NCBI GenBank assembly: GCA_051294905.1
Contig: CM119372.1
Location: forward strand, 7,318,001-7,382,000
Reading direction: 5' to 3'
DNA length: 64,000 nucleotides
Origin: Botryllus schlosseri
Lineage: Eukaryota
A program made the translations under genes and the position numbers. Under the pieces are notes generated by a model, which was not told the origin of the DNA, did not search any database, and saw nothing but the letters and a program-made list of their open reading frames with translations. Within the stretch, counting starts at the first letter, position 1; every line of letters starts with the position of its first letter. Positions 8,337 to 37,792 of this stretch are shown here, piece after piece.

Positions 8337-8584
8337 TTATAAATGTGGATCAAAAGTGGCATCATATCTTTGACTTGGTCGTAATGTGTTCGACTTTTTC
8401 CATTTCATTCGTCGGTTCTGAAACCAGATTTTGATTTGTCGCTCGGTGAGACTCAGATCTTGAGCGATCTCGATTCTTCTGCGCCTCGTCAGATATTGGT
8501 TAAAGTGAAATTCCTTCTCCAATTCCAAAGTCTGAAACCTAGTGTAGGCGGTTCTCGGTCGTTTAAGCTGATCTGTTGTCTGGT
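8337..8584 (-). CDS. Hox5: Hox gene (PG5-like) exon 2, homeobox
   Basis: Acceptor TTTTTGCAG, then (N)[65 protein letters not shown]...PHL*. Phase matches the phase-1 donor after 29224. An Antp-class homeodomain is certain; the paralogy group is less so. Confidence 0.9.
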
Positions 8585-9004
8585 CTGCAAAAAATATTGG
8601 TCGTAATATTACATCCGCTTTATCTACTTCTCTTAATTTTTATCATAGGTACCAAACTTCTTACATGTAAGGAGGGTACTTTTTTGCTTTACGATGTCGT
8701 CATTACTTGCTACGGTACAGACATAACTGACAAGGCATGATTTTATCAACAATTGGTGTCTTCACTTTATATTTCATGAATGAGCCTGTAGACAGGTGTT
8801 GTTTTTCAATTGAATTTAAGAAAGAGACAATCGGTCTAGTTTCGATGATCAAATAATTTTCCTTTCCCACTAAAAATGGTCGTACCGTATATGACAAAAG
8901 GATAATAATGCCAGTTTTACCTTCTTATCAGTTTTTAATCAATGACCATATTATAGAGCCCCATGCAACGAGGAACTCATGATGCTACTGTTATTAGTAG
9001 GATG

Positions 9005-9535
9005 ATTTTTGTCAAAATTGTAGCGTTAAGTCAAAAGATCTCAAAACTGACAACCTGAATTTCGTTTGTATCGTAGATTTTGCACTGTCGGTGAACTTAT
9101 CATTTGACATTTTACAACTTGTAGCCTACTTTATCGGCCTACCCTTGTAGACGGTCCATTGTCTGCTCATTGTGAATCATAGACATTCAAATGAAACAAA
9201 TAGGTTTACATGGTGTTATGCTGAACGTACTTCAATATCCTAGCTGAAGCAAGACTGCGTGGGCATTGCATGGTTCTTATATCACGAAGCGCATGATGAA
9301 AAATTATGATGTAGACAGCATTGTCAGAGTAAAGCAACACGGTTTGTCACCAGCAGTGTACACACAACTTCAGTGTTGTCAGCCGACAACTGATGCTGTT
9401 GAACGTTCTTTCTCCATTGTTGACAAGCTACTTAGTAAGGACAGACACTTTCTACCGAAAATGCAAGAAAGTATCTTTCTTTGTGTACTAAAACAAATTT
9501 GATTTATTTCTGCCATAATACGTAACGTATCTACT
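9005..9535 (+). mobile_element. Degraded hAT transposase 3' remnant
   Basis: ORF 9266-9502 contains PTTDAVERSFS..KLLSKDR, like the hAT C-terminal dimerisation region. A second copy lies at ~33890-34044 plus ~35551-35975. Boundaries approximate. Confidence 0.6.
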
Positions 9536-9649
9536 GGTTGCGGCCCCTCGTCGTCATCCTGGTCCGTACCGGATTCTCACTGGTGTGACAAATAAATGAT
9601 TGATCGATTGATTATTATTTTTTGTTGTGATTGTCAGGTTTCCATGACA

Positions 9650-9799
9650 ATGTAATTGAAATTGTAATTGAGCAAAATTTTTATCAAATTACAATTATAA
9701 TTACAATTACACAAAATAGAAATGCTTCAATTACAATTACATGAAAAAATGTTATAATTACATTCAGCTCAATTACAAATTATAATTGATCCCACTCTG
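9650..9799. repeat. AATTAC/GTAATT motif array, probable truncated MITE end
   Basis: Inverted then direct (C)AATTAC repeats ending in GATCCCACTCTG. No matching left end or TSD seen. Confidence 0.5.
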
Positions 9800-10092
9800 A
9801 TGTACAGTACATGTATGTGGGGCGTGAGTAGTAGGGTTTGATCAAATATACGCAGGCCCTCAGGCTATTTAGAATGTAAACTCTCTCATAATATAATTTG
9901 CGGTGGACTATGCCCGGTTTATGCAGTAGGTTATAGGCTCGATTCCCACTTATTCTGTTATGTGTATTTTCCTGGATATTCTATTATGTATATTTGTATT
10001 AGTGAAATGCGACTTGATAATATTAGTGCGTTAACTTTCGAGAAATAATTTTTGTATATTTCGGACTATGTATGTTCGCGAAGACTGTAATT

Positions 10093-10245
10093 AGCGAGTC
10101 TAATGAATATAACGACAGACAACAAGTTAGTTGAACGAACACCTTCGCCGCAGGTACGCGATCACCGACGTTATAATGATAGGGACAAATTAGCCGCATG
10201 AAAGCGAGTCTAATGAATATAACGACAGACAACAAGTTAGTTGAA
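10093..10245. repeat. ~43-bp direct repeat pair near the element end (mirror at ~26560-26712)
   Basis: AGCGAGTCTAATGAATATAACGACAGACAACAAGTTAGTTGAA occurs twice, ~110 bp apart. Confidence 0.85.
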
Positions 10246-11805
10246 AAGTAAAACTAATCGTGACCGGGGAAATTAGAGTCGCTGCACCATTTTACAGGCA
10301 GTCTCACACACTTTGCTGCATCTGAGCTTCGTACTAATACATGCATAATTTTGGCATGACGAGAATACGGGTAATACGGTCAATTAACGCCGGAGGCGAG
10401 TCATTTAAACCTTGTTGCTAGATAATACCGCTTTCGGCTACAAAAAAGTTGCCCTGCAAGAAAAAATAGAAGCCCTATGCAAAAGTCGATATTGCTTTGT
10501 GATGATTTTGATGTTGTTCCATACCGATTGGGAAGATAGCACACCTAATTTCGTAACTAACTACAAAATCTCTAGTAACGTAGTAAGACGCATAATGGAA
10601 TTTACGCAAAATCGGTATTGCTATGCGATAATTTTGATCACTATGTTTTGATAATGACTTGCTTCCGAGAAATAAATAACATTCATTATACGTTAGATGA
10701 TACTTTTCCTTGATATTCTATCATGTGTATTTAGGACTAATGCGACATCACTATGTTTACGACAGGTCTGATTTGAACACACACTAATTTTGCGTATCAC
10801 ACCACAAACTGCGCAAGCCTTCAAAGTTGATAAGTAAACAAGTATTTGCACTCCATCAGAATACTAAAGTATAGCTTTTCGCGTAGATATACCTAATACT
10901 AATGTGTTTATGATTTCAGATTGCTTCAACTTCATGAAATTTTCAGTATTAAACAGAAATATAGACCTAGATGACTAACTTTTATTCGTAAATAGCTACT
11001 TCTACCTTAATTTGATGGATTTATCTGAGATCATTGCTTTACTTAATCTCTCCAAGATGTGCATTATACATGTACGTCACCATCGAGACCCTCTGGCTAT
11101 AACTATCTGGCAGTATAATTGCAGCAAATACTCGGGCACTAATTTTAAAGTAGCGTAGGTATCTAAATGAGCTCTGAGTCGCTGTTATTTTGAATCTGAC
11201 CATGGAGTCAACACCACTATTACCTTCGCTCACTGATGAAAAAGATGAAAGTTATTAAAGAAAGCAGATTTGTATGAAAACTCGTTAAATAGAAGTAAAA
11301 GTAGCCTAGAAACATAACAACTTACTGAAAAATCGAACATAACCACTTACTCACTTTGAAATCTCAACTTGTACTTGTATTCGTACTTTACCTTTACACG
11401 TCGTCTTTGTATAATAAATACTAATTATATTAAAAATAAATAAAAAGCACGAAAAATTACATTTTATCCCGGAACGTAGCAAAAAAAAAAAATCGTATAA
11501 ACTTTGTAAAGTAGATAGAAAACTACACCATTCCGATGCAGTGAAGACTCTTACACTCAGGATTTTGTGCAGTACATACTAATTTTACATTGCGGAGTAT
11601 TCCATAAACGTTTATCCAGTGATCCTCCTTCTATTTTCAATCACGATCCGTTTATTATTCCAGGCTTCGAACCCCGTACCCAGTACGTTTTATGGGGATT
11701 AATATTTTTAGATTAAATATAGCGTGTCGAGACTTCGTGAAACTTACTTGGAAATAGTTATTTCTACCCTAATTTAATAGATTTCTCAGACATCGTAGCA
11801 ACGGA

Positions 11806-11861
11806 ACTGGGTTGAGAGAGCGGTTAAGGCGTTGGACTTAAGTTTCAATGAACAAGTGTTC
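11806..11861 (+). pseudogene. tRNA-Leu(TAA)-derived 5' fragment
   Basis: ACTGGGT..GAGCGGTTAAGGCGTTGGACTTAAGTTTCAATGAACAAGTGTTC: D-loop/A-box, anticodon arm with TAA and long variable arm. T-arm absent. Confidence 0.7.
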
Positions 11862-11866
11862 TAAGG

Positions 11867-14207
11867 CAGTGGTTCTCAACCGCCGGTCCGCGGACCGGTG
11901 CCGGTCCGTGACGACATTCCTACCGGTCCGCAGGTATGTTACAAATTTATACATTAATTTCAAGATGCGATGTTGAAGGCTTGTCCATTGATAAAATAAA
12001 TATAGCCTAACGTCAAATTTTAAACAGATTAAAAACTTCGTGAGGTAACATTAGGGCTGGAAACATGTTCGATCTGACTTAAAGTTCAGGACGTTTCATT
12101 TGACGTCATGCGAGCAAAAGTACAGAATAGATACGAGCTCACTCATCGCTAGACATCGTAGTTTAATCATTGGTTTTCGATTCATTCATTTTATGCAGGA
12201 CCGTAACTGGGGCACCCCAAACCATCCATTTGAAGAGGTGCCGAGCCTGAAGAGAGCCCAAAATTATTTCGCAAATGAACATGATTCATAGCGTATTTAT
12301 TTGAAACTTTGTCCAACATTTTTTCAATTTCTTTTCGGGCTTTGTACGATTTAGTTTCCCGTGTCCCTACATTTTTTGCTTATTAGGTGCCATTCTCCGA
12401 GAAATACGCATGATTTATAGGTATTTCGGCGTCAGCCATTACCGCGCCACGACGTACCAACACATAATGTAGTTTAGGTTGACATGGGGCTCCTAAAGGT
12501 GGGCCAAAAATTCGACCGCGAGAAAACCGCTTCAGTCGTGAATGATCGAAAATTTTCGCTATTGTCGCGATAAGCTACGTAAACTCTCTGTTTACGCTGG
12601 ATAGAATGGATGTGATCACGCGTACATGTGAAAACATCCAGACGAGTATAAAGTCTGGAGGTGAATCCCCGGATGATTGACTTATCGCCCTGTTGAGGCT
12701 CCTAGATCAACGTTTTTGGGGTAGGCTGACGAAGTGCTTTTCGGCCCGGATTTGCGGATGGCCGGTATAACTGCAGTAATGTGTTTTCTTGCGACGCGCA
12801 TTGTGTTTGTAGTGGTCCTAATAAACTGCGTCTGGTGGCAGTGGGAAATGATCGAGCAAGGTAGCACTACAAGGCAGTGTTGGGATCAAGTCACTACCTT
12901 CAGGTCACGAGTCATTTCGAGTCATTGCACATTTTGACTCGAGTCAAGTCAAGTCAATCGATTTTCAAAGGTGACTCGAGTCAAGTCAAGTCACTCGATT
13001 TTTGGAGGTGACTCGAGTCAAGTCGAGTCAAGTCAAGTCAAATCACAAGTCAAGTCACAATTCAAGTCAAGTTGCCTTTTCGAAGTATGGGGCATGATTA
13101 CGTCACTGCATTTTGCTAGCTGTCTGAAGTACATATTGAGTGGTCATTGATTCTGAACCGCTAAACGAATATAGAGTTGAATATACACGCAGGAAGGCGC
13201 TGTATCGCTCACATATATGTAGAAATGATAAACTACGTAAATAATTACATAGCCTCAGTCGATAGTTACTGGCCAAAATAGAGAATAGAGATTTGATTGA
13301 GAACGAATTGATAAGACGCAATACATTATCCATGATAGAATTCGAGCCTGCGCCAATGGTTGGGGACTATACAAACAAAAACATATTCGATTTCAATAAA
13401 ACATGAGGTTTTTGTTAAGGTGAGAACAGAAATATACATTTTGCCATTCAATTACTTTACTACTAGTTTACGACAACGTGAGCCATCAGCTTCGATCCCT
13501 TCGTTTGCGGTCAATTTATTTGTGAGATAACAATTGAGGCTCAGTAAAATGCCCGATCATTGAATGTGGCCGCAGTCTCATGGGTTACACCAGCGTTTCG
13601 TGAAAATCCAAACATATTACAGATACAGATTTTTATCGACACCGATTACTTGATGACTTGAAATTGACTCGTGAATTTTGCTCCGAGTCTCGAGTCAATC
13701 CACATTTCTGATACGATGAGTCAAGTCAAGTGAAGTCATTTTAGCAAAGTGACTCGAGTCAAGTCAAGTCATACGAAAAAGGTGACTCGAGTCTGACTCG
13801 AGTCATCCCAACACTGCTACAAGGTGCGTGGTTGACTCCGATACACTTCTTCTCTCGATATTGTCAGAGAGAGGAATATTATTGAAGTTGGCGTGGCCGG
13901 TTAAACCCACGGCTTTCGGCATGAAAGACTGTAAACGACCCTCGGCGGTAGCACGTTTAGCTGGACAAGCCAATTTTATCTCGACTCGGCAGACTTACTA
14001 ACTACCATAAGATCACATGAATTTCATCATGAATATAATTAAATACGATCAAAATCCTCTAAATGTCACTCTCTAGCACCATATAATTGCAAAAACGGTT
14101 GCATACTTTACATTTTGGCTTCATCTCAATTTTAAAAGTTCGCCGGTCCGCCAGACATTTTTTGAAATTTTACCGGTCCGCGAAGCGGAAAAGGTTGAGA
14201 ACCACTG
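11867..14207. mobile_element. Non-autonomous hAT (Buster/Charlie-type) element present only in the left palindrome arm
   Basis: TIR CAGTGGTTCTCAACC / GGTTGAGAACCACTG, perfect TSD TTCTAAGG. Single empty site CCTTAGAA at 24939-24946 in the right arm. Homologous to 50382-54092. Confidence 0.95.
12875..13816. mobile_element. hAT MITE with GACTCGAGTC/CAAGT subterminal arrays, nested in 11867-14207
   Basis: TIR CAGTGTTGGGAT / ATCCCAACACTG, perfect TSD CTACAAGG. Empty site at ~53703-53710 in the other host copy. Confidence 0.95.
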
Positions 14208-14373
14208 TTCTAAGGGACTCATGTTTTAAGATAACCTAAACGCAAAGTGCACGAATTTCCATATTGATCAAATACCACAAACTTTGCTTGCTTTCAGAGT
14301 TAGTAACCAAGCGCGTAACAGAATTTACCTAAAAAAGTCAGTACTCCGAAAATTTTGTAAAGTCTAGCTTTTT

Positions 14374-14434
14374 GGCGTTGGACTTAAGTTCCAATGAACA
14401 AGTGTTCACGTAGGTTCGAATCCCACACCCACTA
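14374..14434 (+). pseudogene. tRNA-Leu(TAA)-derived fragment lacking the 5' end
   Basis: GGCGTTGGACTTAAGTTCCAATGAACAAGTGTTCACGTAGGTTCGAATCCCACACCCACTA: anticodon arm, variable arm, B-box GGTTCGAATCC and 3' acceptor strand. Confidence 0.75.
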
Positions 14435-15211
14435 CGTTTTACGAGAATTAATAGTTTTAGATTCAAATTTAGCGTATAGAGTACTTTTTCTGCCGTTTCA
14501 GCGCATTAGAGACGTTTACACTATGGATTTCGCGAGCTTTACTTTAGTTTTATAAATTAACGTAAAACTAGTCATTTCCGAGTAAGTAAAGCGTTCGTAT
14601 TGTAGGTTCAATTCTGCTTAATACTATAATTATCATGGAGTTGAAGCAGTCCAATATCAAAAACACTCGAAAGTATTTGTTGCATATAGCTAAAAACCTA
14701 ATTGAGTACTCTGAAGAAGTACAAGTAGCACAGTTTGTGGTATTCGTATGACATCGAAATTTAGCTAACCAGAACGTATACTTGAATACTCCGAAATGTA
14801 CAAGTACTTTACCTTTACACGACGTTTCTGTAAAATGAATACTAATTTTATTAAAAAATAAAAAAGCACGGAAAATTACACTTTATCCCAAACCACCAGA
14901 ATACTAAAGTAGCTTATCGCGTTTATGTACCTAATACTAAAGTGTTTATGATTTCAGTTCGCTTCAACTTCATGACATTTACAGTATTACACAGAAGTAT
15001 AGACTTAGAATGCTAACTTTCTTCGTTAATAGCTACTTCTAGCTTAACTTAAGGGATTTATCTTAGATCATTGCTTTACTTAATCTCTCCAAAATGTGCA
15101 TTATACACGTACGTCACCATCGAATCCCTCTGGCTATAACTATATGGCAGTATAATTGCGGCAAATACTCGAGAACTAATTTTAAAGTAGCTTTGGTATC
15201 TAAATGAGCTC

Positions 15212-16972
15212 TAGGACATTGTGAATATGCAGCATACAAAATTTAATCACACATTTCATGATGGAACAACTTTAAAACTAACGCAGTCGAATACCGACTT
15301 TTACGCATATCTGTTTTGCCTGAAAATAGCATATACTTATGCATAGTCAATTTTAATAGCAGAATTACCATGCTAAACATTGAATTCCCACCTTGAAAGT
15401 TGGTAGGCGGTTACAGGACATTATACCAATGCACCATACCAAATTCCGTCACACATTTCATGATGGAACAACTTTAAAACTAACGCGGCTCTACGTCGAC
15501 TTTTTGCGTACATCTGTTTTGCGGGAGCGTATAGCACGTACCCATACATAGTCAACTTTACTAACGAAATTACCATGCTTAACATTGAATCCCAACTCGA
15601 AACTTGATACGTAGTTGTAGGACATTATGGCAATGCACCAGGCTAAATTTCATCGCACATCTAATCATGGAACACCTTTAAAATTAACGCGGTGGAATAC
15701 CGACTTTTACGCATATCTGTTTTGCGTGAACATAGCATAGACCTACACATAGTCAATTTTAATAACAGAATTAGCATGCTAAACATTGAATTCCCACCTT
15801 GAAAGTTGGTAGGCGGTTACAGGACATTATACCAATGCACCATACCAAATTCCGTCACACATTTCATGATGGAACAACTTTAAAACTAACGCGGCTCTAC
15901 ATCGACTTTTTGCGTACATCTGTTTTGCGGGAGCGTATAGCACGTACCCATACATAGTCAACTTTACTAGCGAAATTACCATGCTTAACATTGAATCCTA
16001 ACTCGAAACTTGATACGTAGTTGTAGGACATTATGGCAATGCACCAGGCTAAATTTCATCACACATCTAATCATGGAACACCTTTAAAATTAACGCGGTG
16101 GAATACCGACTTTTACGCATATCTGTTTTGCGTGAACATAGCATAGACCTATACATAGTCAATTTTAATAACAGAATTAGCATGCTAAACATTAAATTCT
16201 CATCTTGAACGTTGGTACACAGTTGTAGGATATTATAACAATGCGCCATACCGAATTCCATCACACATTTCAGGATGTAACACCTTCAAAACGAACGCAG
16301 TTCTTTGTAGACTTTTGCGTAAATTTGTTGTTCGGTAGCGTAGCACGTACCTATACATATTAGGCTTTAATAACGGAAGTACCATGCTAATAATCAAATC
16401 CCCACCCTGAAACTTGTCACGCAGTTGTATGACATTGTGAAAATACACCATACCAAATTTCGTCAGACATTTCATGATGTAACACCTTTAAAACCAACGC
16501 AGCTCTATACCGACTTTTGGCCAAATCTGTTTTTCCGTAGCGTAGCACGTACCTATACATAGTCAACTTTAATAACGGGATTACCATGTTAATAATCGAC
16601 TCCCCAACTTGAAACTCGGTACGCAGTTGTAAGACATTATGAAAAGGCACCTTGTAAAATTTTGTTACGCATTTCATGATTGAACAACTTCAAAACTAAC
16701 GCAGTTCTATACCGACTTTTGCGGGAGCGTAGCACGTACCTATGCATAGTCAATTTTAATAACGGAATTACCATGCTAAACATTGAATGCGCAACTTGAA
16801 AATAGGTTCACGGGTGTAGTACATTATGACAATGGAACATATCAAATTTCTTCACACATTTCATGATGGAACACCTTTAAAACTAACGCAGTTCTATACC
16901 AACTTCCACGTGAATCTGGTTGAGGGAGCGTAGCACGTACGTATGCGTAGTCAACTTCAATGACGGAATTAC
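15212..16972. repeat. ~202-204-bp tandem array, ~9 units, with a 406-bp dimeric higher-order repeat (left arm)
   Basis: GGACATT-type unit starts at about 15214, 15416, 15620, 15822, 16026, 16228, 16430, 16632 and 16819. Alternate units in ~15360-16190 are nearly identical. Confidence 0.92.
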
Positions 16973-18249
16973 AGATGTAATTAGGTTTCAACACTTTTAC
17001 AATGATTCGTCTTGCTTCCTATAACGTCCCACTCGAAGCCCTCGTTATTAGGCTGTGATCTCAGCCTGAGCTATGTCTAGAAGCCTACGGGTTTATGCAA
17101 ATTGTTTCGATTTATTCTACCCGTTTCAATTTGAGATAAGGAAGCCCATTTCACTTAATGTATCGATGCCTACGGTAGGCTACTCTACAAAATTTTCTGA
17201 TTAATTCTCCCTATGTTAATTTATCATCAGAAAGATGATTTGACTCCTAAAGTACGAAATATTTGTTCGCTTGAGCTAAGCTGCAGGGCTTGGAGTGGAA
17301 TTTTACGAGGTATGCGGACTCATTTCGAGGGGCTCTATGCCATAGGAGCATACTTCACGCTCCAATTCGATTCCCACACATTACATGTAATTACTAACAG
17401 AACCATTGAGTACCAGCCTTGACATTTTACGTAGTACTAGATGGCATGTATACAATTTCATGGCATCCGACAGTACGACGGAGACTATCAAAATATCAAA
17501 AGAAGCCCTCTATTCTTTTCTGAAATAATCAAGGTTTTATCAGGACTTCCCTTCATATAAACTCCAGCAGAATCACTACTAACCTCTCAAGTTTACTCAA
17601 TTTACTGTAATTTGATACTCAAGTACTAAATCCCTATTTTCCGCAAGTATGATAGAGGCTGTCGCTCGATACTCAACGCTTCGTAATTTTGCTGGAATAC
17701 AAGTACAATTAGGGATTAAAAAGTAATATAGGTGGTTATGTTTGTAGATTTACACTTCTACTTACCGGTTTTTCAGGAGAAACTACCTACTTTTAGGACT
17801 TTATATTTTAAAGTAGTTTGAAGTTACGTTTGTATCACCTTGGCAAGTGCTATCATCAAAAACTGCTTTTGCTAAACTCTTACACTTTCACTAAACTTCT
17901 AGACTGAATCTTGTAAAGTAGATAGAAAAGGAAAACTATTAACATAAGGTAAGTGAGAAGCACGTCAAATTCCGATTGCATACAAATGCCACAAACTGCG
18001 CTAACTTCCAGAGTTGTTAAGTATAGAATTACTCGTACTTCTTGAGAATACCCAAGTAGGTTTTTTGCCTACATGTATCAAATACTCTCAAGTCCTTATG
18101 ATATTGGAGTACATCAACTTCATGATAGCTACAGTATTAAACAGAAATAGACCTAGAGTACTAACGTTTTTGCGCAGTGAGAGTTTGCAAATTCTCGAAG
18201 TATTTTTGTTATTTTATTGCGATAAGTCATTCTGCAGCGCAAAAAGGCG

Positions 18250-19300
18250 TCTTAGGATATAGATGAAACCAACACCACTCATCAAGACCACCGAAAACAG
18301 TACATTTCAACATTTAGTAGCATTAAATTTCTAGTGATGTACAAGAAGTGATGATTTCCGAGTGAGTTAAAAAGTAAGTATTAAAGCTATAGTTTACCTA
18401 AAAACCGAAACTCTGAAATAGAAGCAGATGCAGTGTAAATAGCTAATCACTTGATTAAGTCTAGTGCAAGCAGATAAAACCTATATTTGAGTACTACAAA
18501 ATGCACGAATACTTCGCTATCGACTCCATCCACGTAAAAAGTGGCTACGGTTTAAAACTACTTTTACCGATACTCGACGGTTCAGCTTTAGATAAAATTC
18601 GGAAACCGAGTAATTTCATAAACACAAGCTAATTAAATGAATTTACTCGAATGTAGTATGCCGCGTTGATAAGATTAATTATAATATACTTATCATGTTA
18701 CAGTGATTTTTCTAGCGTAGAAAATCTTTAAAATGTAGTAAGCAGGCCAATATGAAGATATTCGCTGAGCTGAATAAACATTAAAAATACTCTAGACTAC
18801 TTTATCGGTACTTGACAGTTTCAGTTTTAGATAAAAATTTTCCCTTTCACCTATAATTACAACTCTTCGCTATCTAAACATGTTCAGAATATATTATTTG
18901 AGATGATATCAACCCGCAAAGTACTCAAGTAGCTTTTCGTAGGATATAGATGAAACTGACACCACTCAACAAGACCACTTACCCACTGAAAAAAAGTACA
19001 TTTCAACATTTTAGTAGCAGTAAATTCCTACTAAAGTACAAGAAGTGATGATTTCCGAGTGAGTTAAAAAGTAAGTATTGAAGCTATAGTTTGCTCGAAA
19101 ACCGAAAAACTCTGAAATAGAAGTAGATGCAGTGTAAATAGTTAATCGCTTCATTTAGTATAGCGCAAGCAGGCCTAACCTATTCTTGAGTACCCCAAAA
19201 TGTACTAGTACATCGCTATGTAGTCCCTCCACGTAAAAAGTGACTAGGGTTTAGACTACTTTTTCCATACTTGACAGTTTCAGGTTTAGATAAAATTTGG
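18250..19300. repeat. Diverged ~350-bp internal duplication near the palindrome centre (mirrored in the right arm)
   Basis: TAGGATATAGATGAAAC...TTAGATAAAATT occurs at ~18253-18600 and ~18940-19297. Confidence 0.75.
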
Positions 19301-19555
19301 TGAGACTTTAAATTTTAAAGTAGTTTGAGCTTACGTTTATATCACCTTGACAAGTAACATTATCAGACACGAAAATGATATTATCACCTAATGCAAAAGT
19401 TAACACACGTCAGTGTGCTTAGGAAGTCACGAAAAATTGCTTACTAAGAGAAGTATATTCTTGTATACACAACAGTGGAGAGAATCTTTAAAATGTAGTA
19501 GGCAGGCCGATGGGTATTCGTTGCAATGTATAAGCATAAAAAACATTCCCGCGCG

Positions 19556-19598
19556 TCTTAGTAGTAGGTGGTAGGGTAGGAAGTGTTAGGTTTAGGAG
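19556..19598. other. 43-bp G-rich spacer (loop) at the palindrome centre
   Basis: TCTTAGTAGTAGGTGGTAGGGTAGGAAGTGTTAGGTTTAGGAG, flanked by TTCCCGCGCG and CGCGCGGGAA. Confidence 0.95.
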
Positions 19599-22181
19599 CG
19601 CGCGGGAATGTTTTTTATGCTTATACATTGCAACGAATACCCATCGGCCTGCCTACTACATTTTAAAGATTCTCTCCACTGTTGTGTATACAAGAATATA
19701 CTTCTCTTAGTAAGCAATTTTTCGTGACTTCCTAAGCACACTGACGTGTGTTAACTTTTGCATTAGGTGATAATATCATTTTCGTGTCTGATAATGTTAC
19801 TTGTCAAGGTGATATAAACGTAAGCTCAAACTACTTTAAAATTTAAAGTCTCACCAAATTTTATCTAAACCTGAAACTGTCAAGTATGGAAAAAGTAGTC
19901 TAAACCCTAGTCACTTTTTACGTGGAGGGACTACATAGCGATGTACTAGTACATTTTGGGGTACTCAAGAATAGGTTAGGCCTGCTTGCGCTATACTAAA
20001 TGAAGCGATTAACTATTTACACTGCATCTACTTCTATTTCAGAGTTTTTCGGTTTTCGAGCAAACTATAGCTTCAATACTTACTTTTTAACTCACTCGGA
20101 AATCATCACTTCTTGTACTTTAGTAGGAATTTACTGCTACTAAAATGTTGAAATGTACTTTTTTTCAGTGGGTAAGTGGTCTTGTTGAGTGGTGTCAGTT
20201 TCATCTATATCCTACGAAAAGCTACTTGAGTACTTTGCGGGTTGATATCATCTCAAATAATATATTCTGAACATGTTTAGATAGCGAAGAGTTGTAATTA
20301 TAGGTGAAAGGGAAAATTTTTATCTAAAACTGAAACTGTCAAGTACCGATAAAGTAGTCTAGAGTATTTTTAATGTTTATTCAGCTCAGCGAATATCTTC
20401 ATATTGGCCTGCTTACTACATTTTAAAGATTTTCTACGCTAGAAAAATCACTGTAACATGATAAGTATATTATAATTAATCTTATCAACGCGGCATACTA
20501 CATTCGAGTAAATTCATTTAATTAGCTTGTGTTTATGAAATTACTCGGTTTCCGAATTTTATCTAAAGCTGAACCGTCGAGTATCGGTAAAAGTAGTTTT
20601 AAACCGTAGCCACTTTTTACGTGGATGGAGTCGATAGCGAAGTATTCGTGCATTTTGTAGTACTCAAATATAGGTTTTATCTGCTTGCACTAGACTTAAT
20701 CAAGTGATTAGCTATTTACACTGCATCTGCTTCTATTTCAGAGTTTTCGGTTTTTAGGTAAACTATAGCTTTAATACTTACTTTTTAACTCACTCGGAAA
20801 TCATCACTTCTTGTACATCACTAGAAATTTAATGCTACTAAATGTTGAAATGTACTGTTTTCGGTGGTCTTGATGAGTGGTGTTGGTTTCATCTATATCC
20901 TAAGACGCCTTTTTGCGCTGCAGAATGACTTATCGCAATAAAATAACAAAAATACTTCGAGAATTTGCAAACTCTCACTGCGCAAAAACGTTAGTACTCT
21001 AGGTCTATTTCTGTTTAATACTGTAGCTATCATGAAGTTGATGTACTCCAATATCATAAGGACTTGAGAGTATTTGATACATGTAGGCAAAAAACCTACT
21101 TGGGTATTCTCAAGAAGTACGAGTAATTCTATACTTAACAACTCTGGAAGTTAGCGCAGTTTGTGGCATTTGTATGCAATCGGAATTTGCGTGCTTCTCA
21201 CTTACCTTATGTTAATAGTTTTCCTTTTCTATCTACTTTACAAGATTCAGTCTAGAAGTTTAGTGAAAGTGTAAGAGTTTAGCAAAAGCAGTTTTTGATG
21301 ATAGCACTTGCCAAGGTGATACAAACGTAACTTCAAACTACTTTAAAATATAAAGTCCTAAAAGTAGGTAGTTTCTCCTGAAAAACCGGTAAGTAGAAGT
21401 GTAAATCTACAAACATAACCACCTATATTACTTTTTAATCCCTAATTGTACTTGTATTCCAGCAAAATTACGAAGCGTTGAGTATCGAGCGACAGCCTCT
21501 ATCATACTTGCGGAAAATAGGGATTTAGTACTTGAGTATCAAATTACAGTAAATTGAGTAAACTTGAGAGGTTAGTAGTGATTCTGCTGGAGTTTATATG
21601 AAGGGAAGTCCTGATAAAACCTTGATTATTTCAGAAAAGAATAGAGGGCTTCTTTTGATATTTTGATAGTCTCCGTCGTACTGTCGGATGCCATGAAATT
21701 GTATACATGCCATCTAGTACTACGTAAAATGTCAAGGCTGGTACTCAATGGTTCTGTTAGTAATTACATGTAATGTGTGGGAATCGAATTGGAGCGTGAA
21801 GTATGCTCCTATGGCATAGAGCCCCTCGAAATGAGTCCGCATACCTCGTAAAATTCCACTCCAAGCCCTGCAGCTTAGCTCAAGCGAACAAATATTTCGT
21901 ACTTTAGGAGTCAAATCATCTTTCTGATGATAAATTAACATAGGGAGAATTAATCAGAAAATTTTGTAGAGTAGCCTACCGTAGGCATCGATACATTAAG
22001 TGAAATGGGCTTCCTTATCTCAAATTGAAACGGGTAGAATAAATCGAAACAATTTGCATAAACCCGTAGGCTTCTAGACATAGCTCAGGCTGAGATCACA
22101 GCCTAATAACGAGGGCTTCGAGTGGGACGTTATAGGAAGCAAGACGAATCATTGTAAAAGTGTTGAAACCTAATTACATCT

Positions 22182-23942
22182 GTAATTCCGTCATTGAAGT
22201 TGACTACGCATACGTACGTGCTACGCTCCCTCAACCAGATTCACGTGGAAGTTGGTATAGAACTGCGTTAGTTTTAAAGGTGTTCCATCATGAAATGTGT
22301 GAAGAAATTTGATATGTTCCATTGTCATAATGTACTACACCCGTGAACCTATTTTCAAGTTGCGCATTCAATGTTTAGCATGGTAATTCCGTTATTAAAA
22401 TTGACTATGCATAGGTACGTGCTACGCTCCCGCAAAAGTCGGTATAGAACTGCGTTAGTTTTGAAGTTGTTCAATCATGAAATGCGTAACAAAATTTTAC
22501 AAGGTGCCTTTTCATAATGTCTTACAACTGCGTACCGAGTTTCAAGTTGGGGAGTCGATTATTAACATGGTAATCCCGTTATTAAAGTTGACTATGTATA
22601 GGTACGTGCTACGCTACGGAAAAACAGATTTGGCCAAAAGTCGGTATAGAGCTGCGTTGGTTTTAAAGGTGTTACATCATGAAATGTCTGACGAAATTTG
22701 GTATGGTGTATTTTCACAATGTCATACAACTGCGTGACAAGTTTCAGGGTGGGGATTTGATTATTAGCATGGTACTTCCGTTATTAAAGCCTAATATGTA
22801 TAGGTACGTGCTACGCTACCGAACAACAAATTTACGCAAAAGTCTACAAAGAACTGCGTTCGTTTTGAAGGTGTTACATCCTGAAATGTGTGATGGAATT
22901 CGGTATGGCGCATTGTTATAATATCCTACAACTGTGTACCAACGTTCAAGATGAGAATTTAATGTTTAGCATGCTAATTCTGTTATTAAAATTGACTATG
23001 TATAGGTCTATGCTATGTTCACGCAAAACAGATATGCGTAAAAGTCGGTATTCCACCGCGTTAATTTTAAAGGTGTTCCATGATTAGATGTGTGATGAAA
23101 TTTAGCCTGGTGCATTGCCATAATGTCCTACAACTACGTATCAAGTTTCGAGTTAGGATTCAATGTTAAGCATGGTAATTTCGCTAGTAAAGTTGACTAT
23201 GTATGGGTACGTGCTATACGCTCCCGCAAAACAGATGTACGCAAAAAGTCGATGTAGAGCCGCGTTAGTTTTAAAGTTGTTCCATCATGAAATGTGTGAC
23301 GGAATTTGGTATGGTGCATTGGTATAATGTCCTGTAACCGCCTACCAACTTTCAAGGTGGGAATTCAATGTTTAGCATGCTAATTCTGTTATTAAAATTG
23401 ACTATGTGTAGGTCTATGCTATGTTCACGCAAAACAGATATGCGTAAAAGTCGGTATTCCACCGCGTTAATTTTAAAGGTGTTCCATGATTAGATGTGCG
23501 ATGAAATTTAGCCTGGTGCATTGCCATAATGTCCTACAACTACGTATCAAGTTTCGAGTTGGGATTCAATGTTAAGCATGGTAATTTCGTTAGTAAAGTT
23601 GACTATGTATGGGTACGTGCTATACGCTCCCGCAAAACAGATGTACGCAAAAAGTCGACGTAGAGCCGCGTTAGTTTTAAAGTTGTTCCATCATGAAATG
23701 TGTGACGGAATTTGGTATGGTGCATTGGTATAATGTCCTGTAACCGCCTACCAACTTTCAAGGTGGGAATTCAATGTTTAGCATGGTAATTCTGCTATTA
23801 AAATTGACTATGCATAAGTATATGCTATTTTCAGGCAAAACAGATATGCGTAAAAGTCGGTATTCGACTGCGTTAGTTTTAAAGTTGTTCCATCATGAAA
23901 TGTGTGATTAAATTTTGTATGCTGCATATTCACAATGTCCTA
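22182..23942. repeat. ~202-204-bp tandem array (right-arm mirror)
   Basis: Reverse complement of 15212-16972, with identical mirrored ORF translations. Confidence 0.92.
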
Positions 23943-24719
23943 GAGCTCATTTAGATACCAAAGCTACTTTAAAATTAGTTCTCGAGTATTTGCCGCAATT
24001 ATACTGCCATATAGTTATAGCCAGAGGGATTCGATGGTGACGTACGTGTATAATGCACATTTTGGAGAGATTAAGTAAAGCAATGATCTAAGATAAATCC
24101 CTTAAGTTAAGCTAGAAGTAGCTATTAACGAAGAAAGTTAGCATTCTAAGTCTATACTTCTGTGTAATACTGTAAATGTCATGAAGTTGAAGCGAACTGA
24201 AATCATAAACACTTTAGTATTAGGTACATAAACGCGATAAGCTACTTTAGTATTCTGGTGGTTTGGGATAAAGTGTAATTTTCCGTGCTTTTTTATTTTT
24301 TAATAAAATTAGTATTCATTTTACAGAAACGTCGTGTAAAGGTAAAGTACTTGTACATTTCGGAGTATTCAAGTATACGTTCTGGTTAGCTAAATTTCGA
24401 TGTCATACGAATACCACAAACTGTGCTACTTGTACTTCTTCAGAGTACTCAATTAGGTTTTTAGCTATATGCAACAAATACTTTCGAGTGTTTTTGATAT
24501 TGGACTGCTTCAACTCCATGATAATTATAGTATTAAGCAGAATTGAACCTACAATACGAACGCTTTACTTACTCGGAAATGACTAGTTTTACGTTAATTT
24601 ATAAAACTAAAGTAAAGCTCGCGAAATCCATAGTGTAAACGTCTCTAATGCGCTGAAACGGCAGAAAAAGTACTCTATACGCTAAATTTGAATCTAAAAC
24701 TATTAATTCTCGTAAAACG

Positions 24720-24780
24720 TAGTGGGTGTGGGATTCGAACCTACGTGAACACTTGTTCATTGGAACTTAAGTCCAACGCC
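24720..24780 (-). pseudogene. tRNA-Leu(TAA)-derived fragment (mirror of 14374-14434)
   Basis: Reverse complement of the left-arm copy. Confidence 0.75.
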
Positions 24781-24943
24781 AAAAAGCTAGACTTTACAAA
24801 ATTTTCGGAGTACTGACTTTTTTAGGTAAATTCTGTTACGCGCTTGGTTACTAACTCTGAAAGCAAGCAAAGTTTGTGGTATTTGATCAATATGGAAATT
24901 CGTGCACTTTGCGTTTAGGTTATCTTAAAACATGAGTCCCTTA

Positions 24944-24999
24944 GAACACTTGTTCATTGAAACTTAAGTCCAACGCCTTAACCGCTCTCTCAACCCAGT
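24944..24999 (-). pseudogene. tRNA-Leu(TAA)-derived 5' fragment (mirror of 11806-11861)
   Basis: Reverse complement of the left-arm copy. It is also truncated here although no hAT insertion is present. Confidence 0.7.
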
Positions 25000-27900
25000 T
25001 CCGTTGCTACGATGTCTGAGAAATCTAATAAATTAGGGTAGAAATAACTATTTCCAAGTAAGTTTCACGAAGTCTCGATACGCTATATTTAATCTAAAAA
25101 TATTAATCCCCATAAAACGTACTGGGTACGGGGTTCGAAGCCTGGAATAATAAACGGATCGTGATTGAAAATAGAAGGAGGATCACTGGATAAACGTTTA
25201 TGGAATACTCCGCAATGTAAAATTAGTATGTACTGCACAAAATCCTGAGTGTAAGAGTCTTCACTGCATCGGAATGGTGTAGTTTTCTATCTACTTTACA
25301 AAGTTTATACGATTTTTTTTTTTTTTGCTACGTTCCGGGATAAAATGTAATTTTTCGTGCTTTTTATTTATTTTTAATATAATTAGTATTTATTATACAA
25401 AGACGACGTGTAAAGGTAAAGTACGAATACAAGTACAAGTTGAGATTTCAAAGTGAGTAAGTGGTTATGTTCGATTTTTCAGTAAGTTGTTATGTTTCTA
25501 GGCTACTTTTACTTCTATTTAACGAGTTTTCATACAAATCTGCTTTCTTTAATAACTTTCATCTTTTTCATCAGTGAGCGAAGGTAATAGTGGTGTTGAC
25601 TCCATGGTCAGATTCAAAATAACAGCGACTCAGAGCTCATTTAGATACCTACGCTACTTTAAAATTAGTGCCCGAGTATTTGCTGCAATTATACTGCCAG
25701 ATAGTTATAGCCAGAGGGTCTCGATGGTGACGTACATGTATAATGCACATCTTGGAGAGATTAAGTAAAGCAATGATCTCAGATAAATCCATCAAATTAA
25801 GGTAGAAGTAGCTATTTACGAATAAAAGTTAGTAATCTAGGTCTATATTTCTGTTTAATACTGAAAATTTCATGAAGTTGAAGCAATCTGAAATCATAAA
25901 CACATTAGTATTAGGTATATCTACGCGAAAAGCTACTTTAGTATTCTGATGGAGTGCAAATACTTGTTTACTTATCAACTTTGAAGGCTTGCGCAGTTTG
26001 TGGTGTGATACGCAAAATTAGTGTGTGTTCAAATCAGACCTGTCGTAAACATAGTGATGTCGCATTAGTCCTAAATACACATGATAGAATATCAAGGAAA
26101 AGTATCATCTAACGTATAATGAATGTTATTTATTTCTCGGAAGCAAGTCATTATCAAAACATAGTGATCAAAATTATCGCATAGCAATACCGATTTTGCG
26201 TAAATTCCATTATGCGTCTTACTACGTTACTAGAGATTTTGTAGTTAGTTACGAAATTAGGTGTGCTATCTTCCCAATCGGTATGGAACAACATCAAAAT
26301 CATCACAAAGCAATATCGACTTTTGCATAGGGCTTCTATTTTTTCTTGCAGGGCAACTTTTTTGTAGCCGAAAGCGGTATTATCTAGCAACAAGGTTTAA
26401 ATGACTCGCCTCCGGCGTTAATTGACCGTATTACCCGTATTCTCGTCATGCCAAAATTATGCATGTATTAGTACGAAGCTCAGATGCAGCAAAGTGTGTG
26501 AGACTGCCTGTAAAATGGTGCAGCGACTCTAATTTCCCCGGTCACGATTAGTTTTACTTTTCAACTAACTTGTTGTCTGTCGTTATATTCATTAGACTCG
26601 CTTTCATGCGGCTAATTTGTCCCTATCATTATAACGTCGGTGATCGCGTACCTGCGGCGAAGGTGTTCGTTCAACTAACTTGTTGTCTGTCGTTATATTC
26701 ATTAGACTCGCTAATTACAGTCTTCGCGAACATACATAGTCCGAAATATACAAAAATTATTTCTCGAAAGTTAACGCACTAATATTATCAAGTCGCATTT
26801 CACTAATACAAATATACATAATAGAATATCCAGGAAAATACACATAACAGAATAAGTGGGAATCGAGCCTATAACCTACTGCATAAACCGGGCATAGTCC
26901 ACCGCAAATTATATTATGAGAGAGTTTACATTCTAAATAGCCTGAGGGCCTGCGTATATTTGATCAAACCCTACTACTGGCGTGAGCATCAACACTTAAT
27001 TATGTCCAATATTATATTCATTTATAGTGGAATCAACTTTTGATACTTCAATCGGGGTAACTTTGGGTCAAGAGTGGGGTGGACTCGCAGTCGAGTTACG
27101 TGTGATTTTTAAACACCGATAACGAATAATCCTCGCCTTTCACTGCAGACGTGAATTGATTATAATCGCCCCGTCAGGTGATTTTTCACCATCGTTGACG
27201 CTAAACGCTGACATCGTTAAGGAATTCCTGATATTGATTTTAAAAAGTAACACCTTTATCGTTATCTGAGCGAGTAAAGTCATATAACAACAAGCTGCTT
27301 TCAACTTGGAAAAGTGTCTAAGTTTAAATAAAGTTCAACATAAGTTATAATGTATCTTTTATAAATGATCTGTTCTACAGCATGCTAGGAAAAAAAGTTT
27401 ACGAGATCGAGGCAGTATCATGTCATGGTGAATATATTTCATAAAATCGACTATAGGTATGTGAAATCATTATAATGTCGGTAGGTCAATTGTGTACAGA
27501 CGTTTAAATTTTACATAGACTACACGGCAATGTCCTCTACAGTAAACGAGAATGGGACATTGCACGCTATATGCAGTAAAGATACATTTAACAAGTCAAT
27601 ATAATCGTTAAAATGAGCGCGAAAATTGATATACTGTCAGAAATTTGACACTTGTTTGAATTTCGTAAGGAGCAATTATGTTTTAGATAATTCCTTCGCT
27701 AGCAGTAAAGCGAACGTGAGCGTGAAAGTGAATGTGAATTTTACAAGTCGAGATTAACTAGATTGCACATAACCTTCGGGTTTTAATATTTTCTCGTTAT
27801 AAAATGCATATCAAAATTCTGAACCGCAAAGAAGGTTCTTAAAGTAACCACATTGTGGGCAAAGTGATTTGATTGATGGCTCCCAATGTGAGTGATAGGT

Positions 27901-28049
27901 GCCAGTTGACCTGTGCGAAACGATATCGACAGTAGCGTATAAGACAAAGAAGATGTTTGCGGCGCAGAAAATACGAAAACGATTTCGCAATGAAGTGATT
28001 TCTCAGTGCCATTGTGACATCACAGAATTTGACATCAAAGTGTCATGGG

Positions 28050-28647
28050 AAGGGCAAGTTTTTGCAACTTTTGCAACTTTTCTTTACAATTTCCGGCAGC
28101 TTCCTAAATACTCATAAGTTACGTAGTATGGTATTTTAAGCTGTTTGGGGAATCTTATATTGCAACGTTTTGCAAATTTTCTTCATTTTTTTATGCAACT
28201 TCGTGCAACTTTTGCGATTTTTTATGCAACTAACTTTTTACTGTATATATTTGGCCCTATATGTAAATAGATCGCTTGATTAATTCACTGCCATTTAAAT
28301 TTGAGATCCTTTCTGGTTTGACGTACATCCTGGCCTAGTAGGCCATGCGTACATCCAGGCTAGACCGCCGAAAATTATACTTTTACTGGGTCAATTTTAT
28401 AAGGCTATTGATTTTATTGAAGTGGCCAACATCAAGTTTTGCTACAGTGCCTTGAATACAGAACGATTGGATTATCTCCTACCCTAATAATTTCAAGGAA
28501 CTTGTCCATAAATGCAACTACTTGATGCAACTTTTGTGAAAATTAAACGTATTTTTAGTGCAACTTTTGTGAAAATTAAATGCAACTTTTTACTGTAACT
28601 TTTGTGAAAAAATTTCCGCGGATTTGACTGCAACAAAACTTGCCTTA
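28050..28647. mobile_element. Probable MITE with TGCAACTTTT subterminal arrays
   Basis: Ends AGGGCAAGTTTT / AAAACTTGCCTT and many GCAACTT motifs near both ends. TSD not recognisable. Confidence 0.55.
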
Positions 28648-35542: not shown

Positions 35543-37792
35543 TTCTACAGTTTGTAGCCAAATTTATTGGCCTACCGTTGCAAACGGCCCATTGTCTGCT
35601 CCTTGTGCATCATAAACATTCGAATGGAACAAATAGGTTGCCATGATGTTATATTCAACGTACTGCAATATCCTAACTCAAGCAAGATTGCGTGGGCATT
35701 GCATGGTTCTTATATCAAGAAGCGCTTTGTGAAAAATTGTGATGTAGGCTAGACACCATTGTCAGAATGAAGCAACAGGGCGTGTCACCGTAATGTACGC
35801 ACGCACAACTTCAGTATTGTCAGCCGACAACCGCTACTGTTCAACGTAATTTCTCTATTCTTGGCAAGCTACTAAATAAGGACAGACCTTTCTACCCTAG
35901 AATGCAGGACAGTGTCTTTTGTTGTACTACAGCAAATTTCAATTATGTCTACCATATACGGGATGTAAGTACTGGAATTCTTCGTAGTGTCAGATTTCGT
36001 TAAAATAAAGTGTTTTCATGAAAAAAATGTCAGTTTTTGAGTCAAAAAAGTTTTTTTCAGGCCAAACTACTTCGTAAGGACGAACAGTTCGAACCATAAA
36101 TGAAGATAAGTAGTACAATTCTAACATTATGTGGGAAACACCTAATTTGCATACCTTAGGTCGAAAGTTATCATAATTAAGTTTTTTAAGGTCCAAAAAT
36201 GTCAAAATTCTGATTTTTTGGTCACAATCCTCCGTTTTTTAGGTAAAAAAAATCTCCCTACTCATCACAGATGTGAACTATGACGGTAGAAACGAACGGC
36301 CACGAGAAAAACATTGAAACAAGAAGTATAATAATCAACAGTACACAAAAACTACCCATGACGCTTCTAGCAATCCGCATTTCGTCACGATGCGCAATAT
36401 TACAGGAGCCGATCACGTACACAATATAGTTTACTGCTAACCTAAGGAACTAATGCTCACTCTGTATATTTTATCAGTGGTTTTAGCTGCTATAAAAGAC
36501 AGGTAATTGCAGATTAACGACAATTGAAAACCGCCGAACTCGTCGCGTTACTCTTTGAAAAGCTCTCGCGTACCACTAGTCACTCGAGTGCAGTGGTTTT
36601 CAAATTTTTTAGTAGCGCGTACCACCTCGAGGTTCTATGGTTTTGTTGCGCAGCAGTAATTTATAAGAAAAATTATCTTGGCTCCCAATGCATATAGGAT
36701 TACTAACATGACAGGACTAGCAAATAAGTCGGCCCGGAAATTTCGAAAGAAATGCGGCCCACGATCGGGTCCGCGCTGATCATTTATAAATAACACACAC
36801 TAACAAGGCAAAATTTAACGTGATGGTTGCATTTTTTCTTCTCTACAAGCTGATCTAGGCGGAGTTGTTTTTTTTAATCGTATTCATGGTGTTTTTGACT
36901 GCAATGGCCATTTGCATCAGGGCGATATTCTTTATTATGACTCGTATCTGCCGACTTTTAGGACGGCCCACCCACCTCTTATCCGGATCACATGTCGAGG
37001 AGATCAAACTAGGTAACTTAACTTTCACTTATTTAGTTCCAACCGATTAGGTATCCCGACTCATAAAGTATTTAATTATCCGCGAAGACATTTCTTACTC
37101 TAGGAAAAGGTACGTCAACGATTTGTAAAACTGTACTTTCACTTAAAAATATGCATTTTCTCCACACTATCAGACAACTACTACGTCGTTTACCGCGTAC
37201 CATAATAGTGACTGTACCACTGCACTATGATGAGCGAACCACAATTTTTAAGAACTACTGGTACGGAATTGCGATAAAAGTGTACTACCGAGTTTTGCGA
37301 AAATAACATTCAAATAACCTGAAATCACTTCGTAGCTTCCGAAATTGAATGAATCATGAAGACATCTGAGAAGTTATATTTCAACAGAAGCATGTATTAA
37401 TAGTATCGGAAATGCAGTATTGAATGAAGTTGCAAGTTTAACCGGCCCGCGTGGTCGAAAAGGTCGAGAACCCCTGGTCTACATCTGCTTGGACGATGGA
37501 GAAGTAAAGTCAACACAAAAAGGAAACATACGCAAGTAGTGATAGTCAGAGTATCTCTTTACCCTGCATGTTAGTATTCGAGATATGTGCCCGTTGTAAG
37601 CTTACGTATACGCATTTTGTCCGCGTTTACGCCGCAATACTCGTTACACACGTATACTCGACACTAAATCGACAAAGCTGGATATATATGTGCGGTCGTC
37701 GTGCTCTGATGAATCCCGCAGCTTCGGCCCGCAAAGCCCATAACGTAATTTTTCAGTGCATTTTAGTAATGCAATACCTATAGGCTGCTGTG

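Follow-up and report, generated by a model that had tools for sequence, protein, structure and literature searches.

Introduction

The Polintons or Mavericks (polintoviruses, adintoviruses) form a class of virus-transposons, of which the hallmark, as Kapitonov and Jurka are said to have described it in 2006, is a 6-bp target duplication together with 5'-AG...TC-3' ends. They are thought to replicate via a single-stranded intermediate that is paired through its inverted repeats, and to our knowledge this intermediate has never been seen. In adenovirus, synthesis starts by a jump-back on a terminal trinucleotide repeat, and incomplete adenovirus particles hold snap-back genomes, i.e., inverted duplications. 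Giant palindromes are known from chromosomes as well, the rDNA of Tetrahymena being one. For Polintons, the available text of PMC4046053 gives a model in which such a panhandle or "stem" intermediate is proposed, and that of PMC6431247 puts their usual length at 15-25 kb. Near this length is the element considered here, which occupies positions 9827-26978 (17,152 bp) of a stretch of Botryllus schlosseri DNA (assembly GCA_051294905.1, contig CM119372.1, positions 7,318,001 to 7,382,000, forward strand); the whole stretch of 64,000 nucleotides is called the window.

The element is probably a non-autonomous, wholly palindromic satellite of Polinton/Maverick, adintovirus-like elements in the same genome, moved by the proteins of these helpers. 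What is observed is that it has Polinton ends and a 6-bp duplication, that elements with the same ends and with polymerase, ATPase and integrase are present, that hundreds of copies exist, that they have one apex in common, and that their two arms change in concert. How such palindromes would replicate is a separate question, which is taken up in the Discussion.

Results

Structure of the Element

The first bases of the element are AGTAGTAGGG and its last bases are CCCTACTACT, and directly outside both ends stands the hexamer GGCGTG, at 9821-9826 on the left and 26979-26984 on the right, as a 6-bp target-site duplication. When the window is compared with itself, two pairs of inverted identity blocks appear, 9827-11866 against 24939-26978 and 14199-19555 against 19599-24955, and when an insertion nested in the left arm is omitted each arm measures 7,380 bp, with a 43-nt spacer (19556-19598) between the two. 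In the left arm, the outer part (9827-11866, plus strand) has the AGTAGT start and a TACGC...CCCTCA box at about 9849-9862, and pairs with 24939-26978 at 99.66%, while the inner part (14216-19555, plus strand) pairs with 19599-24938. The right arm (19599-26978, minus strand) is uninterrupted over its 7,380 bp and ends with the last bases given above. The arms differ from each other by 3 substitutions, all within the outer 2 kb, and by 6 gap columns in 4 indel events, which corresponds to an identity of 99.88%. Each arm also contains a tandem array with a period of 202/406 bp, at 15212-16972 in the left arm (plus strand) and mirrored at 22182-23942, and this array is common to most of the relatives described below.

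The initial annotation had given the ends, the flanks and the sizes of arms, spacer and insertion, and all its numbers are right except one: it had found no open reading frame above 90 amino acids, and the longest stop-to-stop frame in the element is 104 amino acids. That the window copy is gene-less holds all the same, in that its frames include no Pfam-type gene and a tblastn comparison of this copy with 12 Polinton-borne proteins gives no match. No protein-primed family B polymerase and no rve integrase of its own was found among these frames (at most 104 amino acids) or by tblastn, and no Rfam family or tRNA in window positions 9000-28000. Being without its own polymerase and integrase, the window copy is not an autonomous Polinton.

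A Family of Palindromes

The genome comprises 495.5 Mb in 219 contigs, and the terminal 300 bp of the window element match 45 places in it, mostly as plus/minus pairs 3-18 kb apart. Fourteen copies of the palindrome family were read, i.e., the window copy, 11 copies found by the similarity of their ends and 2 copies with other end types. Six of these, the window copy included, are palindromic straight through the centre, with 99.1-99.9% identity: besides the window copy they are C3a (12.4 kb), C15, C11 and C3b (15.4 kb) and C2y (16.0 kb). A seventh, C4, is palindromic apart from insertions, and in C31, C16, C5, C7, C12b and C1x the arms measure from 2.8 to more than 8 kb and the centre is small and either unique or rearranged; in C12a the repeats are just 316 nt. 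The ends are AGTAGT and ACTACT, the AGTAGT start is found in all 11 copies detected by similarity (one of them lacking 2 nt), and these 11 also have in common a TACGC...CC(CTCA/AATC) box about 20 nt inside the end. No transposase frame is present in any of the 14 copies.

Flanking duplications were counted for 15 elements, namely the 14 copies and the autonomous element on C2 to which we return in the next section. Perfect 6-bp duplications, each different, flank 10 of the 15, including the autonomous one (ggcgtg, tacgcc, ttcgtg, gttcca, cgtgtg, cctaca, aatagg, atcatg, tatata and tacgta), and in the remaining 5 elements two match at 5 of 6 positions, a third has a shifted match, a fourth has no duplication and the fifth lies outside the coverage. 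The chance of a 6-bp flank match is 1 in 4,096 for a single element, and with 10 of 15 perfect and all different the duplications are therefore far beyond chance. Other palindromic copies with different 6-bp duplications, which the initial annotation had named as one test of its proposal, are in other words present in the genome.

The end pattern of the family has 387 genome matches, against 54 for a reversed control. Among the first 100 of these matches listed, 37 paired elements can be formed with lengths from 4.7 to 34 kb. Of the 37, 16 fall at 14-18 kb, where the helpers have 16.9-17.8 kb, and the rest are spread over the whole interval. The window element is a member of an old and diversified lineage with a shared apex and not a one-off defective genome.

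Autonomous Polintons with the Same Ends

Autonomous Polintons with the same termini, also anticipated in the initial annotation, were found at several loci. Consider first the element at G000:C2:2211650-2229478, which is 17.8 kb long and has AGTAGT ends and a TACGTA duplication; its inverted repeats measure about 257 nt and are 96% identical. A weak match to the A32 ATPase lies exactly mid-way in this AGTAGT-ended pair on C2. Whereas the 14 palindromes were read, this helper was read over 6.0 of its 17.8 kb, and the helpers of the '67%' class introduced below are known by position. The 3-kb centre of the C2 helper is not palindromic. It encodes the C-terminal 407 amino acids, out of a whole frame of 1,314, of a polymerase with KLCGNSAFG and GDTDS, which we take to be polymerase motifs; PF03175 is carried by 12 of 46 database homologues, several of which are named DNA-directed DNA polymerase, and tunicate and echinoderm proteins are among the homologues. 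Searches of the 407-amino-acid fragment against Pfam and against solved structures gave nothing, and the identity of the polymerase therefore rests on the motifs and on the homologues that carry PF03175. The same helper has a 274-amino-acid frame for a packaging ATPase of A32/FtsK type (PF04665, E 1.4e-9) and an N-terminal integrase-like fragment, of which both homologues found (2 of 2) carry rve (PF00665) and chromo (PF00385) domains.

With the polymerase as query, 104 loci are found in four identity classes of about 100, 70, 67 and 42%. Most of them have open frames of about 1,290-1,314 amino acids, and 11 loci are 99-100% alike. A second, identical helper copy on C4 has the same distance of 9,130 bp from end to polymerase. 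Genome-wide there are also 67 weak-to-moderate matches to the A32-like ATPase, many of them beside polymerase matches. A six-frame profile search of the genome with PF03175 gave 0 matches, which is a false negative since at least 104 polymerase loci exist, and family-model searches of genomes can accordingly miss divergent Polinton polymerases. A profile search with PF00770 (adenain) also gave 0, without a positive control and by the type of search that missed the polymerase.

The ends connect these elements with the palindromes. The terminal 235 nt of the C2 helper are 94% identical to the ends of C2y, a gene-less palindrome of 16 kb. The first 27 nt of the window element recur exactly at C7:29912524, where an open polymerase frame of 1,295 amino acids follows 6.1 kb downstream, at 29918632, and an ATPase match at 29919991. 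A single mismatch separates them from a site at C4:11821006, which has a polymerase frame 5.0 kb further on (11826026), and they recur with 2-3 mismatches at both C13:5486129 and C13:5503026, which delimit a 16.9-kb element that encloses polymerase and ATPase matches. Because the matched ends on C7, C4 and C13 adjoin polymerases of the '67%' class, this class is, judged by position, likely to be the helper of the sub-family to which the window element belongs. With its 6-bp duplication, its ends and the sharing of these ends with autonomous copies, the window element has what defines a non-autonomous member of the Polintons/Mavericks.

Cut-and-paste superfamilies with long, repetitive inverted repeats, such as Foldback, Galileo/P, IS3EU or Dada, offer another way to classify the palindromes, by which their likeness to Polintons would be coincidental. 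Duplications of 6 bp are made by IS3EU and Dada, and duplications of 9 bp by Foldback. The 202/406-bp tandem arrays in the arms resemble the repeats of Foldback and Galileo as these are described in the available text of PMC3573991, but the ends and the 235-nt terminal repeat are shared with elements that bear polymerase, ATPase and integrase, and a transposase frame is lacking in 14 of 14 copies, so that a coincidence of this kind is very improbable. Membership of Foldback in particular was considered and rejected: the tandem arrays are present, yet the ends are of Polinton type and 6 bp, not 9, are duplicated at the target.

As a separate observation, two gene-less 16-kb palindromes, at G000:C2:1350046-1366012 and G000:C15:7712557-7728523, show no difference in the 2 kb over which they were compared (100% identity). 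Because of this identity, and because 11 polymerase copies are 99-100% alike, very recent movement seems likely for helpers and satellites alike.

Cargo Genes and Origin of the Arms

Just inside the left repeat of the C2 helper lies a 173-amino-acid gene of the Bcl-2 family, followed by a ubiquitin-E2 fragment, and at its right end there is a death-domain frame. Six of the 14 copies (C5, C3a, C3b, C11, C15 and C7) contain the Bcl-2 gene, whole or in pieces, in each of their arms; this gene is absent from the window copy. Since a gene from the left end of the helper recurs in this way, the sequences indicate that the arms derive from a Polinton end, of which the window copy itself shows the end only. 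The helper-type ends, together with Bcl-2 in 6 of 14 copies, display an inverted duplication of a helper end in which the origin-type end is retained. Some relatives of the window element are not gene-less, but have Bcl-2 or BIR genes in both arms.

The frames for regulators of cell death are located at L057:297-818, L057:1308-1499 and L058:631-951 (these three in G000:C2:2211650-2229478), at L051:5395-6642 and at L043:4948-5541. They match PF00452 (Bcl-2, E about 5e-21), PF00531 (death domain, E 8.5e-11) and PF00179 (E2 fragment), and a 416-amino-acid frame for an inhibitor of apoptosis (IAP) with three BIR domains (PF00653, E 3.6e-46) lies in one long-armed element of 20.8 kb. Homologues of Bcl2 and IAP have been reported in adintoviruses (PMC8502044, available text), and the available part of that account contains no death-domain or E2 genes.

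One Apex in Hundreds of Copies

The part of the arms next to the centre is, in the window, a block of about 1.4 kb (18169-19555, plus strand, mirrored at 19599-20985) that holds two direct repeats of about 360 bp. Of 10 other copies compared with it, 8 have this block at an identity of about 89-92%. Beyond it, the arms of different copies are a mosaic of shared and unshared blocks. At the very centre is the apex hairpin, 19538-19616, in which G+C-clamped stem ends, AAAAAACATTCCCGCGC at 19538-19554 and its inverse at 19600-19616, surround the 43-nt spacer. This spacer, or loop (19556-19598, plus strand), is non-palindromic and G/T-rich and has the core TTAGGTGGTAGGGTTAGGA. The turn-around has an identical design in all 6 copies that are palindromic through the centre: the arm runs into ...AAAAAACATTCCCGCGCG, then comes a non-palindromic loop of 43-67 nt, and then the inverse stem. 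The loop core is exact in 3 of the 6 aligned copies and near-exact in the other 3, including the window copy, and it is recognisable in C2y even though the arms of C2y are mostly unlike those of the window element. C16 and C5 have the same apex region with one-sided central deletions.

In the whole genome the 17-nt stem motif has 560 matches (281 on the plus and 279 on the minus strand), against 0 for a control. Among the first 100 matches listed, 39 plus/minus pairs about 60 nt apart and 22 singles are found, which by extrapolation corresponds to about 340 apex loci. As single-stranded DNA, the apex is predicted by computed folding to form a perfect stem and an open loop, with a z-score of -21.7. 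Because one apex is common to hundreds of loci, the palindrome appears to have arisen once or very few times and to have been propagated as a palindrome thereafter. The orientation of the loop tracks the arm markers in 3 of 3 comparisons, as predicted by every model except nick-and-transfer. Outside this genome, the apex motif has 33 single, unpaired matches in viral contigs, which may be about the level of chance, and the 19-nt loop core has 2 matches in metagenome contigs, both without G+C stems.

The centre could also be looked upon as a hairpin telomere, given its G+C-clamped stem and conserved loop. The window element would then be the integrated, unresolved head-to-head dimer of a linear 7.4-kb replicon, with the apex as a covalently closed hairpin at one end and AGTAGT at the other, open end, resolved in the manner of a telomere resolvase. 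An element of monomer length, with one AGTAGT end and one apex end, would be expected on this account, but there is none among the 14 copies, and inserted elements are bounded by AGTAGT on both sides and by 6-bp duplications. No resolvase was found either, though no search was aimed at one. Furthermore, the melted monomer would be the same molecule as the displaced strand in the mechanism put forward in the Discussion, and a separate replicon is not required. We therefore regard the dimer as improbable.

The counts also bear on the reliability of the assembly. Arms that are 99.88% alike could also come from a chimeric long read folded back on itself, or from host DNA duplicated locally in inverted orientation, with GGCGTG as a chance match. 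The four runs that cover 8500-28400 consist of short contigs of repeats: among the 32 pieces listed there is none that spans a junction, the 15 joints listed out of 199 include none between 9826 and 26979, and the bin 27092-27755 has contig coverage in run X1 alone. An artefact would, however, hardly leave an apex motif with 560 matches against 0 for the control, nor different 6-bp duplications on 10 of 15 elements, nor arms that differ at 3 sites and by 4 indels with a nested insertion in one of them only. At the level of the family it is excluded on these three grounds, and for the window copy it is the least probable of the explanations considered.

Some features of the loop and of rarer arrangements are added here as observations. 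The loop is nearly free of C on one strand, where it consists of TAGG/TTAGG units that include the telomere-repeat-like TAGGGTTAGG; this is seen at window 19556-19598 and in the same loop in L033, L039, L041, L045 and L054. In the window copy, the loop includes AGTAGTAGG as well, 9 bases that are identical to those of the element end. Two AGTAGT-ended elements, C2:17023736-17047277 (23.5 kb) and C3:4207939-4228871 (20.9 kb), have two apex hairpins each, at equal distances from a new centre, which hints at a second fold-back on a template that was already palindromic. The centre of the former has 110-nt inverted arms around a middle that holds 100 N, and in the latter no inverted symmetry was seen in 801 bp at the centre.

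The Arms Evolve in Concert

To see how the two arms of a palindrome change in relation to each other, consider the copies C15, C11 and C3b, which are about 1% apart and of which both arms were compared. A substitution is here called mirrored when both arms of one copy are alike and differ from the other copy. Each pair of these copies has 51-89 mirrored substitutions, whereas 6-13 are private to one arm and 3-8 one-arm states are common to two copies. When more distant copies are compared with the window element, more than 1,100 mirrored differences are found per copy and fewer than 40 one-arm differences. As the mirrored substitutions far outnumber those in one arm, new changes would seem, from these alignments, to be usually copied to the opposite arm, i.e., the arms evolve in concert. 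At the same time some one-arm asymmetries are inherited, and from these it appears that the whole molecule is copied and that an arm is not rebuilt from the other in each round.

Another history can also account for these two observations. Apart from an inverted repeat of extreme length, the window element may be a non-autonomous Polinton of the ordinary kind, whose palindrome was made and is kept by the host, through fold-back repair of a break and gene conversion, and which is moved by the helper integrase with no hairpin intermediate and no replication advantage. Short inverted repeats beside breaks give giant palindromes in yeast and in mammalian cells (PMC7999016, available text), no free DNA forms were seen, and sister copies inherit one-arm differences, their arms not being rebuilt in each cycle; on these grounds an origin or homogenisation in the host chromosome stays alive as a serious rival. 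Less easily explained in this manner is that one apex is present in hundreds of copies across sub-families with unlike arms and ends, which argues that the palindromic form has long been propagated as such. In addition, the lengths cluster near that of the helpers, and long, near-perfect palindromes with short spacers risk instability according to the same part of PMC7999016. All in all, we consider a host-made palindrome rather unlikely, though it has to be taken seriously.

Other Features of the Window

The insertion nested in the left arm (11867-14207, 2,341 bp) is a hAT-like non-autonomous element with the ends CAGTGGTTCTCAACC and GGTTGAGAACCACTG and an 8-bp duplication, TTCTAAGG, at 11859-11866 and 14208-14215. 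The right arm is without it and reads uninterrupted through the matching site, and the insertion is a later passenger outside the palindrome proper. It contains internal repeats of the type TGACTCGAGTCAAGTCAAGTCA. In each of the four short-contig runs, contig depth is much greater over its inner part than anywhere else, which suggests that it belongs to a family with very high copy number.

Elsewhere in the window, positions 287-1732 contain a single open frame of 481 amino acids with a whole and uninterrupted aldehyde dehydrogenase domain (PF00171, E 1.9e-158), which could represent a retrocopy or a gene without introns. Two direct repeats, each about 1.4 kb long and 97-99% alike, are found at 37791-39198 and 48139-49553, 10.35 kb apart, with no frame of at least 160 amino acids between them; they could be a pair of LTR-like sequences or a local duplication.

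Discussion

If the palindromes are satellites of Polintons, as we think probable, their symmetry suggests a route by which they could replicate. The terminal protein and polymerase of a helper would initiate synthesis at the AGTAGT ends, where the (AGT)2 repeat would suit a jump-back start. Each strand displaced in this process would be fully self-complementary and would snap back to a hairpin of 7.4 kb, the paired end of which would again be a double-stranded origin, so that the second strand could be synthesized without a partner molecule. This would be the panhandle of Polintons and adenovirus carried to its limit. Mismatch repair within the hairpin would keep the arms alike and yield mirrored substitutions, and insertion of the duplex by the helper integrase would give the 6-bp duplication. 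The founding palindrome would have been made once, when a broken or displaced strand folded back on a short G+C-rich inverted repeat around a 43-nt loop and was extended to its end. Fold-back priming at a short inverted repeat that gives a giant palindrome, with the spacer left in the centre, is described in the available text of PMC7999016. The lineage would later have exchanged ends and cargo with several helper lineages, and its usual length near 15-16 kb, close to the 16.9-17.8 kb of the helpers, may reflect packaging.

Several points weigh against this account. Replication by way of a hairpin, initiation by jump-back and mismatch repair within the hairpin are all steps that we infer. The one-arm differences shared between copies, at 3-8 sites, show that an arm is not rebuilt from the other at each copying, and chromosomal gene conversion between the arms would be an equally good explanation of their evolution in concert. 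C2:2211650-2229478, the one helper of known span, lacks the apex 17-mer, and on C1, C2 and the listed part of C3, to 11.1 Mb, this motif is more than 15 kb away from every polymerase locus; with the motif absent from the helpers checked, the ancestral fold-back site was not found in a helper. The C2 helper is known from 6.0 of its 17.8 kb, its capsid and protease genes being putative, and in the window copy tblastn gives no trace of a Polinton gene. Over the short contigs at the window locus neither an empty site nor a spanning long read was seen. Finally, the lengths of paired elements are widely spread, 16 of 37 at 14-18 kb and the rest over 4.7-34 kb, and for this reason selection for size is suggestive and not more.

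One may tentatively go a step further. It is possible, though we would not call it likely, that the palindromes descend as a lineage which sustains itself, made up of snap-back "defective interfering" genomes of an animal virus that is endogenous (Polinton or adintovirus), replicated as full-length hairpins, packaged in helper capsids (with a modal length near 15-16 kb) and transmitted and reinserted over a long time, that the apex is a cis-acting signal, and that some members are armed with two-copy anti-apoptosis genes. If this were true, full-length hairpins could also feed the small-RNA defence of the host against the helpers.

A search of the literature found no wholly palindromic Polinton derivatives, an earlier description in Repbase or in the original papers of 2006-2007 being possible. 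As far as this literature goes, the family would be the first satellite or defective-genome lineage described for the Polinton class. Its whole sequence amounts to a paired stem, and it offers both natural evidence on the replication model for Polintons and a concrete substrate in which to seek the intermediate. An animal genome here keeps hundreds of near-perfect palindromes of 15 kb with spacers of 43-67 nt, structures that are held to be unstable, and if the roughly 340 apex loci are each taken to represent about 15 kb, they would by extrapolation make up of the order of 1% of the genome. Such palindromes are easily mistaken for fold-back errors of assembly, and in automatic annotation they will probably be split up or masked.

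How, then, does the family compare with known systems? With Polintons/Mavericks it has in common the AGTAGT...ACTACT ends, the 6-bp duplications and the helpers of the same genome, whose genes include those for an rve/chromo integrase, an A32-like ATPase and a polymerase of the protein-primed type. It differs from them in that the window copy is geneless, its inverted repeat being the whole element, and in that the family turns at a conserved hairpin apex, which was not found in the helpers checked. Galileo has a P-type transposase, and both Galileo and Foldback have other ends and duplication lengths than the present elements. These Drosophila elements resemble the palindromes in their very long inverted repeats, their internal tandem arrays and the many non-coding copies (PMC3573991, available text), but they belong to other superfamilies, whereas the ends here are shared with polymerase-bearing Polintons.

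The giant palindromes of yeast minichromosomes and amplicons, in so far as the available text of PMC7999016 describes them, have the same non-palindromic spacer and short inverted repeat at the exact centre, but are rearrangements of chromosomes or amplicons and not mobile elements with target duplications. Snapback genomes of AAV (PMC8235507, available text) resemble the present palindromes as mirror duplications of one genome end in which the origin is kept, and as dependents of a helper. They are transient by-products in particles, whereas the palindromes, as known from sequence, are integrated in the germline, long-lived and diversified and have an apex of their own. Another close comparison is with the butterfly polintons, for which the available part of a preprint (10.1101/2025.02.07.637071) describes inverted repeats that grow inward and thereby duplicate genes to two copies, much as Bcl-2 or BIR genes are present in both arms here. 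In butterfly polintons, gene-bearing repeats of about 2 kb surround a full set of genes; in the present family the repeats have reached 7-8 kb, meet in the centre and enclose nothing.

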